Notes: a model not told the origin generated them from the sequence alone. A DNA stretch of 64,000 bases from Escherichia coli (GCF_003790525.1 NZ_CP033635.1); one strand, 5' to 3'; counted from the stretch's first letter, positions 53,325 through 57,905 are shown. Program-made: numbers and translations.

Positions 53325-53930
53325 ATGACGCTCTACCAGATAAAACCGCTCTTTCAGTCGCTGTTAAGGCCGACGATGTTTTGGCTTAATAAGCACCATG
53401 TTACAGCGAATCACATCACTCTTGCTGCACTGGCGCTTTCTCTTCTTACCGGATTGCTGTTGATGTTGGTGGCACAACCCATCCTCTTTTTGCTATTGCC
53501 TATCGTGCTTTTTATCCGTATGGCGCTCAATGCGCTGGATGGCATGATGGCGCGTGAGTGCAATCAGCAAACACGTCTTGGGGCGATTTTGAATGAAACT
53601 GGCGATGTTATTTCCGATATTGCGCTTTATTTACCGTTTTTATTTTTACCGGAAAGTAACGCATCACTCGTAATACTCATGTTATTTTGCACCATATTAA
53701 CTGAGTTTTGCGGTTTACTCGCGCAGACGATTAACGGTATTCGCAGTTATGCCGGTCCATTCGGCAAAAGCGATCGTGCGTTAATATTTGGGTTGTGGGG
53801 GCTGGCTGTTGCCATTTATCCACAGTGGATGCAATGGAATAATCTTTTATGGAGCATTGCTTCAATTTTGCTTCTCTGGACTGCGATTAATCGTTGTCGA
53901 AGTGTGCTCCTGATGAGTGCTGAAAGATAA
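53325..53930 (+). CDS. ynbA: CDP-alcohol phosphatidyltransferase family membrane protein
   Basis: About 201 aa; motif region ALDGMMARECNQQTRLGAILNETGDVISD. Confidence 0.85.
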   Translation: MTLYQIKPLFQSLLRPTMFWLNKHHVTANHITLAALALSLLTGLLLMLVAQPILFLLLPIVLFIRMALNALDGMMARECNQQTRLGAILNETGDVISDIALYLPFLFLPESNASLVILMLFCTILTEFCGLLAQTINGIRSYAGPFGKSDRALIFGLWGLAVAIYPQWMQWNNLLWSIASILLLWTAINRCRSVLLMSAER

Positions 53931-54826
53931 TGCTGGAAAAATCTCTGGCAACACTTTTCGCGTTGTTAATTTTAGCAACGCTGATAAACCGTTTTCTGAT
54001 ATGGCGGTTACCGGAGGGAAAAGGGGGTGAGGTTACATTACGTATTCGTACCTGGTGGGGCATCGTCATTTGTTTTTCAATGGTGATTTCAGGTCCACGC
54101 TGGATGACGTTGACGTTTTTTGCGCTGATAAGTTTTCTGGCATTGAAAGAATATTGTACGCTTATATCCGTACATTTTCCGCGTTGGTTATATTGGGGTA
54201 TTCCTCTTAACTATTTGCTTATCGGTTTTAATTGCTTTGAGCTGTTTCTGTTATTTATACCTTTGGCTGGGTTTCTGATATTAGCCACCTGGCGAGTTTT
54301 AGTGGGTGACCCCTCTGGTTTTCTGCATACCGTGAGTGCCATTTTTTGTGGCTGGATAATGACCGTTTTCGCCTTGAGTCATGCCGCCTGGTTATTAATG
54401 TTGCCAACCACAAATATCCAGGGCGGGGCGTTACTGGTGTTATTTCTTTTGGCGTTAACCGAGTCAAACGATATTGCACAGTATTTATGGGGAAAATCCT
54501 GCGGCAGAAGAAAAGTGGTCCCCAAAGTCAGCCCGGGAAAAACACTGGAAGGTCTGATGGGCGGCGTAATCACCACCATGATAGCGTCGATGATCATTGG
54601 ACCGTTATTGACACCCTTAAACGCCTGGCAGGCATTATTGGCGGGGTTACTGATTGGGGTAAGTGGTTTTTGCGGCGATGTAGTGATGTCAGCCATCAAA
54701 CGAGATATTGGTGTTAAAGATAGTGGAAAACTATTACCAGGACATGGCGGACTCCTTGACAGGATTGACTCATTAATTTTCACCGCTCCGGTATTTTTTT
54801 ATTTTATTCGCTACTGCTGTTACTGA
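53930..54826 (+). CDS. ynbB: CDP-diglyceride synthetase (CdsA)-like membrane protein
   Basis: 298 aa; cytidylyltransferase signature SAIKRDIGVKDSGKLLPGHGGLLDRIDS; start overlaps ynbA stop. Confidence 0.88.
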   Translation: MLEKSLATLFALLILATLINRFLIWRLPEGKGGEVTLRIRTWWGIVICFSMVISGPRWMTLTFFALISFLALKEYCTLISVHFPRWLYWGIPLNYLLIGFNCFELFLLFIPLAGFLILATWRVLVGDPSGFLHTVSAIFCGWIMTVFALSHAAWLLMLPTTNIQGGALLVLFLLALTESNDIAQYLWGKSCGRRKVVPKVSPGKTLEGLMGGVITTMIASMIIGPLLTPLNAWQALLAGLLIGVSGFCGDVVMSAIKRDIGVKDSGKLLPGHGGLLDRIDSLIFTAPVFFYFIRYCCY

Positions 54827-54841
54827 AGGAAAATAGAGAAA

Positions 54842-56599
54842 ATGGAAAATTCACGCATCCCTGGGGAACATTTTTTTACCACCAGTGATAATACAGCGTT
54901 GTTTTATCGGCACTGGCCCACTTTACAGCCAGGGGCGAAAAAGGTCATCGTCTTATTTCATCGCGGTCATGAACATTCTGGTCGTCTACAACATATCGTT
55001 GATGAACTGGCGATGCCAGATACTGCTTTTTATGCATGGGATGCCCGAGGGCATGGACAAACTTCGGGGCCGCGTGGTTATAGTCCGTCTCTTGCGCGTT
55101 CAGTGCAGGATGTCGATGAATTTGTCCGTTTTGCTGCCAGCGACAGCCAGGTCGGACTGGAAGAGGTGGTTGTGATCGCGCAAAGCGTCGGCGCAGTGAT
55201 GGTTGCTACATGGGTTCATGATTATGCGCCTGCTATTCGCGGGCTGGTGCTGGCTTCTCCGGCCTTTAAGGTTAAATTGTATGTGCCGCTGGCACGTCCT
55301 GCGCTGGCGTTATGGCATCGTCTGCGTGGTCTGTTTTTTATTAATTCCTATGTGAAAGGACGCTATTTGACCCACGATCGGCAACGGGTGGCGAGTTTCA
55401 ATAATGATCCGCTGATCACACGGGCGATTGCCGTTAATATCTTGCTCGATCTTTATAAAACGTCTGAACGTATTGTTAGCGATGCGGCGGCGATTACGCT
55501 CCCCACGCAACTTCTGATATCAGGCGATGACTATGTGGTGCATCGTCAACCGCAGATTGATTTTTATCAGAGATTACGTAGCCCTCTGAAAGAGCTGCAT
55601 CTGCTGCCAGGCTTTTATCACGACACGTTGGGTGAAGAGAACAGGGCGCAGGCATTTGAAAAAATGCAAAGCTTTATTAGTCGTTTATATGCTAACAAAT
55701 CGCAAAAATTTGATTATCAGCATGAAGACCGCACTGGACCATCAGCGGATCGCTGGCGGCTCCTTTCAGGTGGACCCGTGCCATTATCGCCGGTTGATTT
55801 GGCGTATCGCTTTATGCGTAAAGCGATGAAATTGTTCGAGACGCACTCTGCGGGCCTGCATCTCGGAATGAGCACCGGCTTTGATTCAGGCAGTTCGCTG
55901 GATTATGTCTATCAAAATCAACCGCAAGGTAGTAACGCATTCGGGCGTTTAGTCGACAAAATCTACCTGAACAGTGTTGGCTGGCGCGGTATTCGCCAGC
56001 GCAAAACCCATTTACAAATGCTGATTAAACAAGCCGTTGCCGATCTCCACGCCAAAGGTTTAGCCATCCGCGTGGTTGACATTGCCGCAGGGCATGGGCG
56101 CTATGTACTGGATGCGCTGGAGTATGAACCTGCCGTATGCGATATTTTGTTACATGATTACAGTGAGTTAAATGTTGCACAGGGGCAAGAGATGATTGCC
56201 CAACGGGGAATGTCTGGGCGGGTGCGTTATGAACAGGGCGATGCGTTTAATCCGGCAGAACTCAGCACGTTAACTCCGCGGCCTACGCTGGCGATTGTCT
56301 CTGGCCTGTATGAGCTTTTTCCCGAAAATGAGCAGGTAAAAAACTCACTCGCAGGTCTTGCCAATGCCATCGATCCGGGTGGCATTCTCATCTACACCGG
56401 GCAGCCGTGGCACCCACAACTGGAGCTGATTGCCGGGGTGTTAACCAGTCATAAAGATGGTAAACCGTGGGTAATGCGCGTGCGTTCTCAAGGGGAGATG
56501 GATTCGCTCGTGCATGATGCCGGATTTGATAAATGCACACAACGGATTGATGAGTGGGGCATTTTTACGGTTTCGATGGCGGTGCGTCGTGATAACTGA
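54842..56599 (+). CDS. ynbC: Two-domain protein: alpha/beta hydrolase plus SAM-dependent methyltransferase-like
   Basis: 585 aa; nucleophile elbow AQSVG; C-terminal methyltransferase-like glycine-rich [11 protein letters not shown]. Confidence 0.88.
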
Positions 56600-56612
56600 A
56601 CGCCGGAACGTA

Positions 56613-57905
56613 TTGCTACAAGGAGCTGGCTGGTTATTGTTGCTGGCCCCGTTTTTCTTCTTCACATATGGATTTCTTAATCAGTTCACCGCGACTCAGG
56701 ATCTTAACAACCATGATATCCCCAGTCAGGTATTCGGTTGGGAAACGGCGATCCCTTTTCTTCCCTGGACTATTTTGCCTTACTGGAGTCTGGATCTTTT
56801 ATATGGATTTTCGCTGTTCGTTTGTAGCTCGACATTTGAGCAGCGCCGTCTGGTCCACCGGCTTATTCTGGCAACGGTAATGGCCTGCTGCGGTTTTTTT
56901 CTCTATCCGCTGAAGTTTAGTTTTATCCGTCCTGAAGTGAGTGGGGTGACAGGATGGTTATTTTCGCAACTTGAATTGTTTGATCTGCCTTATAACCAGT
57001 CTCCTTCGCTGCATATTATTCTCTGCTGGCTACTTTGGCGTCACTTTCGTCAGCATCTGGCTGTGAGGTGGCGTAAAGTCTGTGGCGGATGGTTTTTACT
57101 CATCGCCATTTCGACGCTAACGACCTGGCAGCATCATTTTATTGATGTCATCACAGGGCTGGCGGTAGGTATGTTAATTGACTGGATGGTGCCCGTCGAC
57201 CGTCGTTGGAATTATCAGAAACCTGATCAACGTCGAATCAAAATAGCACTGCCATATGTCGTAGGCGCGTGCTCGTGCATTGTGTTGATGGAGCTAATGA
57301 TAATGCTTCAGTTATGGTGGTCAGTCTGGTTATGTTGGCCAGTATTATCGCTACTCATTATTGGCCGTGGGTACGGTGGGCTTGGCGCGATAACAACAGG
57401 TAAAGATAGTCAAGGGAAACTCCCGCCCGCCGTTTACTGGCTGACATTGCCATGGCGCATCGGGATGTGGCTGTCTATGCGTTGGTTTTGCCTTCGCCTG
57501 GAGCCGGTGAGCAAAATTACTGCTGGTGTTTATTTAGGGGCGTTTCCACGACATATTCCGGCACAGAATGCGGTTCTGGACGTCACCTTTGAATTCCCTC
57601 GCGGACGAGCGACAAAAGATCGACTCTATTTTTGTGTACCGATGTTGGATCTGGTAGTTCCGGAAGAGGGGGAGCTCCGACAGGCCGTGGCGATGCTGGA
57701 AACATTACGCGAAGAGCAAGGCGGCGTTCTGGTCCATTGCGCGTTGGGATTATCGCGCAGTGCGCTGGTGGTGGCGGCATGGCTGTTATGTTACGGACAT
57801 TGTAAAACCGTTGATGAAGCGATTAGTTATATTCGAGCCAGACGCTCGCGGATTGTGCTTAAGGAAGAGCACAAAGCGATGCTGAAATTATGGGAAAACA
57901 GGTAA
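56613..57905 (+). CDS. ynbD: Membrane protein with C-terminal dual-specificity (CX5R) phosphatase domain
   Basis: P-loop [10 protein letters not shown]; N-terminal multi-TM region; start uncertain (TTG at 56613 gives 430 aa; ORF-track ATG at 56514 overlaps ynbC). Confidence 0.8.

Follow-up and report, generated by a model that had tools for sequence, protein, structure and literature searches.

The closest described system is the inositol-lipid cluster of Bacteroides thetaiotaomicron, which consists of BT_1526 (MIPS), BT_1523 (PIP synthase), BT_1525 (PIP phosphatase), and BT_1522 (Aur1-like PI-dihydroceramide synthase) and in which the order PIP synthase, phosphatase, Aur1-like transferase has been established experimentally (PMC9246714). 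Related chemistry is found in the phosphatidylglycerol pathway (CdsA, PgsA, and PgpA/B/C, with PTPMT1 in mitochondria) and in the PAP2_3-type head-group transferases sphingomyelin synthase (SMS), SMSr, and the yeast IPC synthase Aur1. In Escherichia coli, the Nishiyama laboratory has used YnbB, a CdsA paralogue with the full catalytic signature, in its work on the glycolipid MPIase: YnbB synthesizes CDP-diacylglycerol in vitro (PMC7018664) and has been linked to MPIase biosynthesis (PMC6362211, PMC7018664), while a cdsA knockout was not complemented by YnbB even when it was overproduced. Overexpressed ynbD rescued neither a C55-PP phosphatase mutant nor a pgpA pgpB pgpC mutant (PMC7413402). 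The initial annotation of this DNA held that no product had been assigned to the ynb genes; this stands for the operon, for which we found no such paper in the literature searched, but not for its parts, given the published work on YnbB (PMC6362211, PMC7018664) and the published YnbD complementation (PMC7413402).

Here we analysed a window of 64,000 nucleotides of E. coli DNA in which positions 53325 to 57905 carry ynbA-ynbB-ynbC-ynbD with 100% identity to strain SMS-3-5; the gene bounds (Table 1) are those of the RefSeq annotation of the identical SMS-3-5 DNA. All four genes are real and intact. The open reading frames lie exactly where four packed, same-strand genes had been described, with the spacing of an operon: ynbA shares 1 nt with ynbB (TAATG), ynbB and ynbC are 15 nt apart, and ynbC and ynbD are 13 nt apart, or overlap if ynbD is read as a longer frame from an alternative ATG at 56514. 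Inside the block, promoter-like or terminator-like signals were not in excess, and a comparison with Rfam gave no match. The genes are far beyond chance: orthologues occur at 80 loci in about 32 genera, and all four genes have dN/dS values of 0.06-0.24 in the comparison with K-12. We give about an even chance to the reading that a six-gene cluster conserved in proteobacteria, with a CDP-diacylglycerol-dependent head-group pathway as its dedicated task, survives in E. coli as the remnant ynbABCD.

Table 1. Genes, domains, and motifs of the ynb locus (positions counted from the first nucleotide of the window)
Feature	Position	Strand	Description
Candidate core of BglJ-RcsB activator site	53233..53240	+	TATTCTGA in the spacer between ydbD and ynbA; fits the published core wwTTCykA
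ynbA	53325..53930	+	Variant CDP-alcohol phosphotransferase, 201 aa, integral membrane; Pfam PF01066, 5.5e-9
YnbA signature	53529..53618	+	N69-ALDGMMAR-x8-G-AIL-N90-ETG-D94-VIS-D98 (D1, D3 to Asn; D4 kept); PgsA1 alignment and regex
ynbB	53930..54826	+	CdsA paralogue (CDP-diacylglycerol synthase), 298 aa; PF01148, 5e-70
YnbB cytidylyltransferase signature	54689..54769	+	Complete, residues 254-280; regex
ynbC	54842..56599	+	Soluble two-domain protein, 585 aa; Pfam and AlphaFold model, pLDDT 95.6
YnbC N-domain	54935..55639	+	Predicted monoacylglycerol-lipase-type serine hydrolase (HRGHEH40-45, AQS115VG, D230, H260)
YnbC C-domain	55664..56587	+	Predicted class I SAM methyltransferase, family Methyltransf_20 (DIAAGHG413, D439, SGLYELF487); PF12147, 2e-148
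ynbD	56613..57905	+	430 aa; PAP2 domain in the membrane joined to a dual-specificity phosphatase in the cytoplasm; Pfam and AlphaFold, pLDDT 92.5
YnbD membrane domain	56613..57398	+	8 predicted TM helices; PAP2 motifs K101-x4-R106-P107, P131-S-L-H134, S167-x6-H174-x3-D178
YnbD C-domain	57507..57902	+	Dual-specificity phosphatase (D346 general acid, H375-C376-x5-R382-S383)

Following the four-gene core across genomes, a check that the initial annotation had proposed, revealed a larger natural unit. The A-C-D block is kept at the 80 loci; across the 32 or so genera it is accompanied by a small membrane protein, and a PlsC-like acyltransferase and YnbB are usual. When neighbouring open reading frames of 81 loci were clustered (flanks of at most 10 kb), only six gene families (A to D, the acyltransferase, and the small membrane protein) were common across genera, and no gene for a head-group precursor, including a linked myo-inositol-phosphate synthase, was shared among them. 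Conservation extends to Pseudomonas, Burkholderiales, and Rhodocyclales. Natural YnbA-YnbC fusions occur (P0123, P0150, and P0236), and remote clusters retain such a fusion with a PAP2-DSP protein and YnbB, one of them (L087) with the acyltransferase too; a patatin lipase is present in one remote cluster. Judged by gene content, the cluster naturally comprises six genes, and E. coli appears to carry a reduced version that has lost the genes for the acyltransferase and the small membrane protein. In the clusters of Proteus, Providencia, Xenorhabdus, and Morganella, neither YnbB nor the acyltransferase is nearby, which counts against the head-group reading.

Within the species, at least 80% of the locus was found in 4262 of 5426 complete E. 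coli genomes, where its genes are intact. The description of the ynb genes as conserved E. coli genes thus applies to about 79% of complete genomes but not to the remaining 21% or so, which include ST131, where pdxI directly adjoins azoR and the whole ydbD-ynbABCD block is cleanly missing. The viable reduced strain DGF-298 is also without this block. The loss of two cluster genes in E. coli and the absence of the locus from about 21% of strains likewise weigh against the head-group reading.

The domain content claimed earlier for all four proteins agrees with the Pfam matches, and the catalytic motifs are intact and do not vary among 63-81 orthologues, with a variant signature in YnbA. In YnbB (CTP_transf_1), the complete CdsA signature SAIKRDIGVKDSGKLLPGHGGLLDRID was confirmed by regex, and K257, R258, K263, D264, H272, G273, G274, D277, R278, and D280 are unchanged across 63 orthologues. 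Against the NCBIfam CdsA equivalog, YnbB reached 109.9 bits where the cutoff is 385, with only the C-terminal half aligned, and we therefore call it a CdsA paralogue. The same score, together with the failure to complement cdsA in the literature, led us to reject YnbB as an equivalent of the housekeeping CdsA.

YnbA belongs to the CDP-alcohol phosphotransferases by its profile (CDP-OH_P_transf) and by relatives with a six-TM fold: residues 19-184 match PgsA1 and PIPS entries of the PDB at 4e-8, the best solved relative being M. tuberculosis PgsA1 (6h53). Among NCBIfam models it comes nearest to archaetidylinositol-phosphate synthase (4.8e-21; 75.5 bits, cutoff 180) and PIP synthase (3.9e-13; 49.5 bits, cutoff 170), both under the cutoff, as is PgsA (29 bits, cutoff 109). 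The family assignment made earlier holds, but the signature is a conserved variant. Eight residues of the family motif D1xxD2G1xxAR...G2xxxD3xxxD4 have been described as 'absolutely conserved' (PMC4634129), and D1 and D3 are ligands of metal 1 (PMC6506517, PMC4634129). A regex search of YnbA for the canonical signature found no match; the protein reads N69-x2-D-G-x2-A-R-x8-G-x3-N90-x3-D94, which, with residue roles assigned from PMC6506517 and PMC4634129, retains 6 of the 8 residues, with Asn at D1 (N69) and D3 (N90) in 76 of 76 orthologues. The presumed catalytic base D4 (D94) is retained, and N69, D72, G73, A76, R77, G86, N90, E91, D94, and D98 are invariant in all 76. The (D/N)xx(T/S) cytidine-binding element of TM1 is present as A28-N29-H-I-T32, with N29 and T32 invariant. 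Position 95 is Val or Ile and not the Lys or Arg that follows D4 in PgsA1, where the basic residue binds the acceptor phosphate. Since YnbA is without two metal 1 ligands and this basic residue, it may be inactive, take a non-phosphorylated acceptor, or run a different chemistry, all of which count against a head-group pathway. In favour of the pathway, YnbA is nearest to inositol-phosphate and glycerol-phosphate transferases, whose phosphorylated intermediates require a phosphatase. As for degenerate motifs, named earlier as grounds for doubt, the YnbB signature and the YnbD P-loop are whole, while in YnbA two signature Asp residues are replaced.

YnbC combines Hydrolase_4 (residues 32-266, 6e-68) and Methyltransf_20 (residues 275-582, 2e-148). 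The N-domain is predicted to be an enzyme of the monoacylglycerol-lipase type: it shares the fold, HG oxyanion motif, nucleophile elbow, and Ser-Asp-His triad with Rv0183 and human MGLL, which were its matches among PDB sequences (8e-16), and its model gave a Foldseek E of 1.6e-19 and a TM score of 0.89 on the target. S115, D230, H260, and HRGHEH are unvaried in 81 sequences. The C-domain also matches PF13649 (2e-4) and carries the Rossmann-type SAM-binding motifs I to IV of class I methyltransferases, with DIAAGxG, D439, and SGLYELF invariant, so methyltransferase activity is predicted; a profile search of the PDB returned generic class I methyltransferases only (best 4.4e-7). Unlike these lipases and methyltransferases, YnbC fuses both domains in one PF12147 protein, and we found no PDB match with both. 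Homologues of YnbC at 31-35% identity adjoin gene sets for ACP, ketosynthase, dehydratase, ketoreductase, and PF10118, without ynbA, ynbB, or ynbD.

For YnbD, a membrane protein with a CX5R P-loop had been described; the loop is there (HCALGLSRS at residue 375, by regex), but the N-terminal PAP2 domain had been missed (PAP2_3, 3.6e-4; DSPc, 6e-26). Compared with the reference motifs C1 KxxxxxxRP, C2 PSGH, and C3 SRxxxxxHxxxD, YnbD has K101-x4-R106-P107, PSLH134, and S167-x6-H174-x3-D178; C3 is without its Arg, and the His-His-Asp catalytic set (H134, H174, D178) is present. The motifs are predicted to lie on the periplasmic side. The best structural matches of the membrane domain are SMS/SMSr and Aur1-type head-group transferases at 12-14% identity, and in the model it resembles such transferases more than hydrolases. 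YnbD differs from SMS and Aur1 in being bacterial and fused to a cytoplasmic dual-specificity phosphatase (DUSP), with no ceramide acceptor expected and a transferase role that is predicted. The C-domain is a DUSP by its DUSP/PTPMT1 fold, complete C-x5-R P-loop, and general-acid Asp about 30 residues upstream. A DUSP fold alone cannot tell lipid from protein substrates, which again counts against the head-group reading.

The general idea put forward in the initial annotation, a lipid activated with CMP that receives a head group and is then dephosphorylated and methylated, is supported. In the proposed pathway, the PlsC-like acyltransferase, where present, would supply phosphatidate, which YnbB would convert with CTP to CDP-diacylglycerol, an activity of YnbB known from the literature. 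YnbA, PgsA/PIP-synthase-like with an altered metal site, would then transfer the phosphatidyl group to a common alcohol, probably phosphorylated, and the cytoplasmic phosphatase domain of YnbD would take the phosphate off the head group in the manner of PTPMT1 or PgpA-type enzymes. Soluble YnbC, fused to YnbA in some bacteria, would deacylate and/or methylate the lipid at the cytoplasmic face. After a flip, the periplasm-facing PAP2 domain of YnbD would either cleave off the phospho-head group or pass it to a second acceptor.

By analogy, we infer that such a pathway would be built like the Bacteroides cluster with a lipase-methyltransferase added. Both have an inositol-phosphate-type CDP-alcohol phosphotransferase, a dedicated head-group phosphatase, and a PAP2/Aur1-type transferase, clustered and in the same order of chemistry. 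The ynb cluster differs in having no linked inositol-phosphate synthase or other precursor gene, in its Cys-based DUSP fused to the transferase in place of a PgpA-type phosphatase, in Asn at D1 and D3 of YnbA, and in its extra CdsA paralogue, PlsC-like acyltransferase, lipase-methyltransferase, and small membrane protein. The proteobacteria with the ynb cluster are also not known as sphingolipid makers, which, through the question of an acceptor for an SMS-like transferase, counts against the head-group reading. Less likely than not, the product is a lipid class so far unrecorded in the lipidome of either E. coli or Pseudomonas: a transferase with a re-modelled metal site would build a phospho-head group on CDP-diacylglycerol in the cytoplasm, where it would be trimmed and methylated, and the periplasm-facing, SMS-like domain of YnbD would pass it to a second acceptor in the envelope. 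If true, bacteria would have in the ynb cluster a counterpart of IPC/SM synthase that works without sphingolipids.

Among the alternatives, the likeliest, though still unlikely, is that the end product is a released, acyl-derived small molecule. The cluster would build a special phospholipid pool from which the YnbC lipase domain frees an acyl chain or lyso-lipid, and the YnbC methyltransferase domain would methylate what is freed, giving perhaps a fatty-acid methyl ester that serves as a signal. The acyl-chain synthesis genes beside distant YnbC-like proteins favour it and count against the head-group reading, and the monoacylglycerol-lipase/thioesterase-like fold of the YnbC N-domain, the patatin lipase of one remote cluster, and the PlsC-like acyltransferase of the ancestral cluster point the same way. 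On the other hand, the methyltransferase search yielded generic enzymes only, the distant homologues may form a subfamily of paralogues that act on another substrate, and both phosphatase-type domains of YnbD are left without a role.

That the operon, via YnbB, backs up MPIase synthesis is quite unlikely. In this reading YnbB, like CdsA, would make CDP-diacylglycerol and next GlcNAc-PP-diacylglycerol, the earliest intermediate of MPIase, while the other three genes would assist or be unrelated. YnbB overproduction does raise MPIase, YnbB with yeast Tam41 rescues cdsA depletion, and cold induces ynbB along with cdsA (PMC6362211, PMC7018664, PMC11413397). However, the MPIase level is the same in a ynbB knockout, and MPIase is reported to be essential, yet ydbD-ynbABCD is absent from ST131, about 21% of complete genomes, and DGF-298. 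Whereas the MPIase studies handle ynbB alone, here it sits in a lipid head-group cluster with no glycosyltransferase or other sugar-handling gene, conserved in Pseudomonas, Burkholderiales, and Rhodocyclales and absent from many E. coli; YnbA, YnbC, and YnbD would be left without a role.

We consider it improbable that the E. coli operon is what is left of a horizontally acquired island, silent, in decay, and without a product of consequence. Two cluster genes are gone, strains show clean presence or absence of the locus, its GC (0.43-0.47) is below that of the flanks, knockouts have no growth phenotype, and expression depends on BglJ, a normally silent activator. Set against this are the low dN/dS of all four genes in divergent E. 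coli lineages, the intact catalytic residues (in variant form in YnbA), YnbB that is active on expression, and intact genes wherever the locus occurs. A redundant stress copy of the phosphatidylglycerol pathway (YnbB as CdsA, YnbA as PgsA, YnbD as PGP phosphatase) is very improbable: although the YnbA loop ARECNQQTRLGAIL is like the PgsA/PIPS loop (PgsA model match, 1.2e-6) and the YnbD C-domain is like the PGP phosphatase PTPMT1, YnbB and YnbD are not substitutes in vivo (cdsA; pgpA pgpB pgpC and C55-PP phosphatase mutants, PMC7413402), the non-canonical metal site of YnbA is invariant, and the lipase-methyltransferase and SMS-like domain are unexplained.

The E. coli ynb operon is accessory, non-essential, and turned on by BglJ-RcsB and cold. 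Mutagenesis has shown that activation of the ynbA promoter goes through a BglJ-RcsB site whose centre precedes the start site by 65-68 bp (PMC3950696). We assign as the probable core of this site the candidate upstream of ynbA listed in Table 1, the sole wwTTCykA match within 53156-53324.

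The interval 53325-57905 holds four successive ORFs on the plus strand. The close packing and partial overlap of these genes described in the initial annotation were confirmed by the ORFs themselves, by the RefSeq annotation of E. coli SMS-3-5, and by the 1-base overlap of ynbA and ynbB (TAATG). A 5.1-kb query spanning ynbABCD was 100% identical to SMS-3-5 and several further strains. A 15-nt gap precedes ynbC, and 13 nt separate ynbC from the annotated TTG start of ynbD; an alternative ATG start at 56514 gives a longer ynbD ORF that would overlap ynbC. Scanning of the locus revealed no promoter-like or terminator-like signal above background within the ynbABCD block, and an Rfam scan of the locus matched no family.

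Coordinates of the ynb genes and of related genes in loci collected from other genomes (L numbers; each locus has its own coordinates)
Feature	Location	Strand	Remark
ynbA	53325-53930	+	RefSeq annotation of SMS-3-5
ynbB	53930-54826	+	RefSeq annotation of SMS-3-5
ynbC	54842-56599	+	RefSeq annotation of SMS-3-5
ynbD	56613-57905	+	RefSeq annotation of SMS-3-5; TTG start
Two extra cluster genes (PlsC-like acyltransferase; small membrane protein)	L002 9367-10026 and 13020-13427		absent from E. coli
Two extra cluster genes (PlsC-like acyltransferase; small membrane protein)	L035 13082-13537 and 13547-14167		absent from E. coli
Distant YnbC-like loci by ACP/ketosynthase genes	L083 614-9725; L084/L085 3649-9779; L090 3733-9749

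YnbA matched the CDP-alcohol phosphotransferase profile (PF01066, 5.5e-9); its closest curated families were archaetidylinositol-phosphate synthase and PIP synthase, followed by PgsA, all three far under their cutoffs. In an alignment with PgsA1, the M. tuberculosis PIP synthase of solved structure, the signature D1xxD2G1xxAR...G2xxxD3xxxD4 reads N69-ALDGMMAR-x8-G-AIL-N90-ETG-D94-VIS-D98 in YnbA. In PgsA1, the signature aspartates D68, D71, D89, and D93 coordinate two Mg ions, D93 (D4) presumably acts as catalytic base, and R94, described as "always K or R", contacts the phosphate of inositol-phosphate (PMC6506517); eight residues of the CDP-alcohol signature have been termed absolutely conserved (PMC4634129). 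YnbA retains D2 and the base D4 (D94), carries Asn at D1 and D3 (N69, N90), and has a Val or Ile in place of the basic residue after D4. Residues N69, D72, G73, A76, R77, G86, N90, E91, D94, and D98 were invariant in 76 YnbA orthologues (down to 42% identity), and the N...N pattern was also present in three metagenomic proteins in which YnbA is fused to YnbC. Because the signature residues are invariant across the 76 orthologues, the Asn-Asn variant is, as judged from the alignment, not decay. We also considered N90 as a lost catalytic base, with a phosphate nucleophile leading to a pyrophosphate-linked lipid (e.g., GlcNAc-PP-DAG), and rejected this reading; the base is D4, which is kept as D94 (PMC6506517, PMC4634129).

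YnbB is a full-length CTP_transf_1 protein (5e-70) whose residues 254-280 form the complete cytidylyltransferase signature, and it scores as a paralogue of CdsA rather than an equivalog. According to two reports (PMC6362211, PMC7018664), this CdsA paralogue makes CDP-diacylglycerol in vitro, its overproduction raises the level of the glycolipid MPIase, and it rescues cdsA depletion in combination with Tam41; these reports also state that YnbB cannot substitute for CdsA in bulk phospholipid synthesis and that MPIase is unaltered in a ynbB knockout. A further report describes ynbB as cold-induced (PMC11413397).

YnbC is a two-domain protein (AlphaFold pLDDT 95.6). The hydrolase domain is of the monoacylglycerol-lipase type (PDB matches to 8e-16; Foldseek 1.6e-19, TM 0.89), and its residues S115, D230, and H260 as well as an HRGHEH motif were invariant in the orthologue alignment. 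The second domain is a class I SAM methyltransferase (PF12147, 2e-148) with invariant SAM-binding motifs; a profile search of solved structures with this domain returned class I methyltransferases of a generic kind only, from which the methyl acceptor cannot be deduced.

For YnbD, the initial annotation had recognized a membrane protein with a CX5R phosphatase P-loop; the phosphatase (DUSP) domain stands. The N-terminal membrane domain had been overlooked and is a probable PAP2 domain (PAP2_3, 3.6e-4), which carries PSLH134 and S167-x6-H174-x3-D178. Because of the placement of the helices in the AlphaFold model (pLDDT 92.5) and the positive-inside rule, the PAP2 motifs are predicted to face the periplasm, with the DUSP domain on the cytoplasmic side. 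YnbD would thus be two-faced, pairing a periplasmic domain resembling the head-group transferases SMS/Aur1 with a cytoplasmic phosphatase. YnbD has been recognized as a fourth E. coli PAP2 protein; its overexpression failed to rescue mutants in C55-PP phosphatase or PGP phosphatase, and an E. coli strain devoid of every PAP2 is viable (PMC7413402).

The neighborhood of these genes was surveyed by a profile scan with a 10-sequence YnbC alignment, using one genome per species, which yielded at least 585 relatives. The 80 loci kept came from Enterobacterales, Pseudomonas, Burkholderiales, Rhodocyclales, and Neisseriales, plus one Acidobacteria MAG, and tblastn revealed an A-C-D block in essentially all collected loci. 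The gene order is A-B-[acyltransferase]-C-D-[small membrane protein] in Enterobacterales such as Citrobacter and A-C-D-[small membrane protein]-[acyltransferase]-B in Pseudomonas and the betaproteobacteria; Proteus, Providencia, Xenorhabdus, and Morganella have only A-C-D-[small protein]. The acyltransferase is PlsC/LPLAT-like; the small membrane protein (about 135-175 aa) matched no Pfam or NCBIfam family. When all ORFs of 81 loci were clustered, these six families were the only ones common to several genera, and no precursor-making enzyme was linked to the cluster. Both the acyltransferase and the small protein have been lost in E. coli, as in Phytobacter, and no remnant of either gene was found within the window. 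Citrobacter sp. Cu233 has two cluster copies (L004, L016), one complete and the other yielding just partial matches to ynbA and ynbD and none to ynbB. Two remote metagenomic clusters contain a YnbA-YnbC fusion: in L087 it is followed by YnbD, the acyltransferase, and YnbB, and in L086 by a patatin and an SDR, YnbB and a PAP2_3-DUSP protein being encoded there on the other strand.

In the phosphatidylglycerol pathway, CdsA and PgsA act in order and are followed by PGP phosphatase, whose mitochondrial version is the DUSP-fold PTPMT1; the ynb set has the same enzyme logic. A closer counterpart is the Bacteroides inositol-lipid cluster, in which a PIP synthase, a PIP phosphatase, and an Aur1-like transferase work in sequence (PMC9246714). 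From this shared logic we therefore propose a head-group pathway, in broad agreement with the initial annotation. YnbB would provide CDP-diacylglycerol, fed in the full cluster by the acyltransferase, and YnbA would move the phosphatidyl group onto a common, probably phosphorylated, alcohol. In the cytoplasm, the DUSP domain of YnbD would then dephosphorylate the product. YnbC, whose physical coupling to YnbA is suggested by the fusions, may deacylate and/or methylate the lipid, and the periplasm-facing SMS/Aur1-like domain of YnbD may transfer the phospho-head group or remove it. Of these steps, that of YnbB alone has been shown experimentally; we infer the others from protein family and fold, from conservation, and from the linkage and fusion of the genes, and give this sequence of steps roughly an even chance of being correct. 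The altered metal site of YnbA and its absent phosphate-binding residue, the lack of a linked precursor gene, and the acyl-chain setting of distant YnbC relatives all count against it.

These most distant YnbC-like proteins (31-35% identity) adjoin ACP, ketosynthase, dehydratase, ketoreductase, and PF10118 genes in loci without ynbA, ynbB, or ynbD. Because they adjoin such sets, an acyl chain appears to be part of what the YnbC family recognizes, and in these loci the family may serve a second purpose centred on acyl chains. A rival reading, in which the product is a released, acyl-derived, methylated molecule, fits these gene contexts of YnbC, but it leaves YnbD without a role.

The locus is accessory in E. 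coli, and its description as conserved E. coli genes in the initial annotation holds only in part: at least 80% of it is present in only 4262 of 5426 complete genomes, about 21% being without it. In ST131, pdxI directly abuts azoR and ydbD-ynbABCD is missing as a block (L091, strain 751, 6095-7606), and the reduced strain DGF-298 is also without the locus; ydbD-ynbABCD (about 7 kb) is thus a clean presence/absence polymorphism. The GC content of ynbA and ynbB (0.43-0.45; 53250-54500) is under that of the flanks (0.53-0.56 upstream of ydbD and in hrpA), which fits an island gained by horizontal transfer. A role as an MPIase back-up is based on overexpression data; it is at odds with a locus that a fifth of E. 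coli do not have and with a cluster that is widespread without any sugar-handling gene. A redundant PG pathway is contradicted by the failed complementation by both YnbB and YnbD. Finally, a decaying remnant is contradicted by the intact catalytic sites and by the dN/dS values of 0.06, 0.11, 0.24, and 0.20 for the four ynb genes between the window and K-12, which show that they are under purifying selection.

The ynb genes are already known and one of them, YnbB, is partly characterized. The earlier statement that no product had been assigned overlooks the published work on YnbB and YnbD; the searched literature gave no function for YnbA or YnbC and did not treat the operon as a unit. Four features appear to be undescribed in that searched literature: the cluster of six genes, the CDP-alcohol signature with its invariant Asn-Asn variation, the YnbA-YnbC fusions, and the fusion of a transferase-like PAP2 domain with a DUSP domain predicted to lie on opposite membrane faces. 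That the product is a new envelope lipid, or the system a sphingolipid-independent one for head-group transfer, is a tentative suggestion that we consider rather unlikely. E. coli has the best-studied bacterial lipidome, and it nevertheless carries a full complement of enzymes for a proposed head-group pathway without a known product. Once identified, this product would be an additional lipid or lipid-derived molecule of the Gram-negative envelope, and four y-genes would have a function. The identification would also matter for the disputed biosynthesis of MPIase, since YnbB, the only studied member, belongs to a cluster missing from many E. coli.

The ydbD-ynbA spacer contains a single match to the published BglJ-RcsB core motif (TATTCTGA, 53233-53240), a candidate site from which a ynbA transcription start at about 53300-53305 would follow. 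Directly upstream of the operon, ydbD is frameshifted in the window at 51548-51553, with five A compared with six in SMS-3-5 (GATGAAAAA[A]GAAG), which splits the 768-aa gene into two ORFs (50844-51590 and 51590-53155). Two more single-base differences from SMS-3-5 were found at 51393 (G to A) and, within hrpA, at 61409 (T to G).
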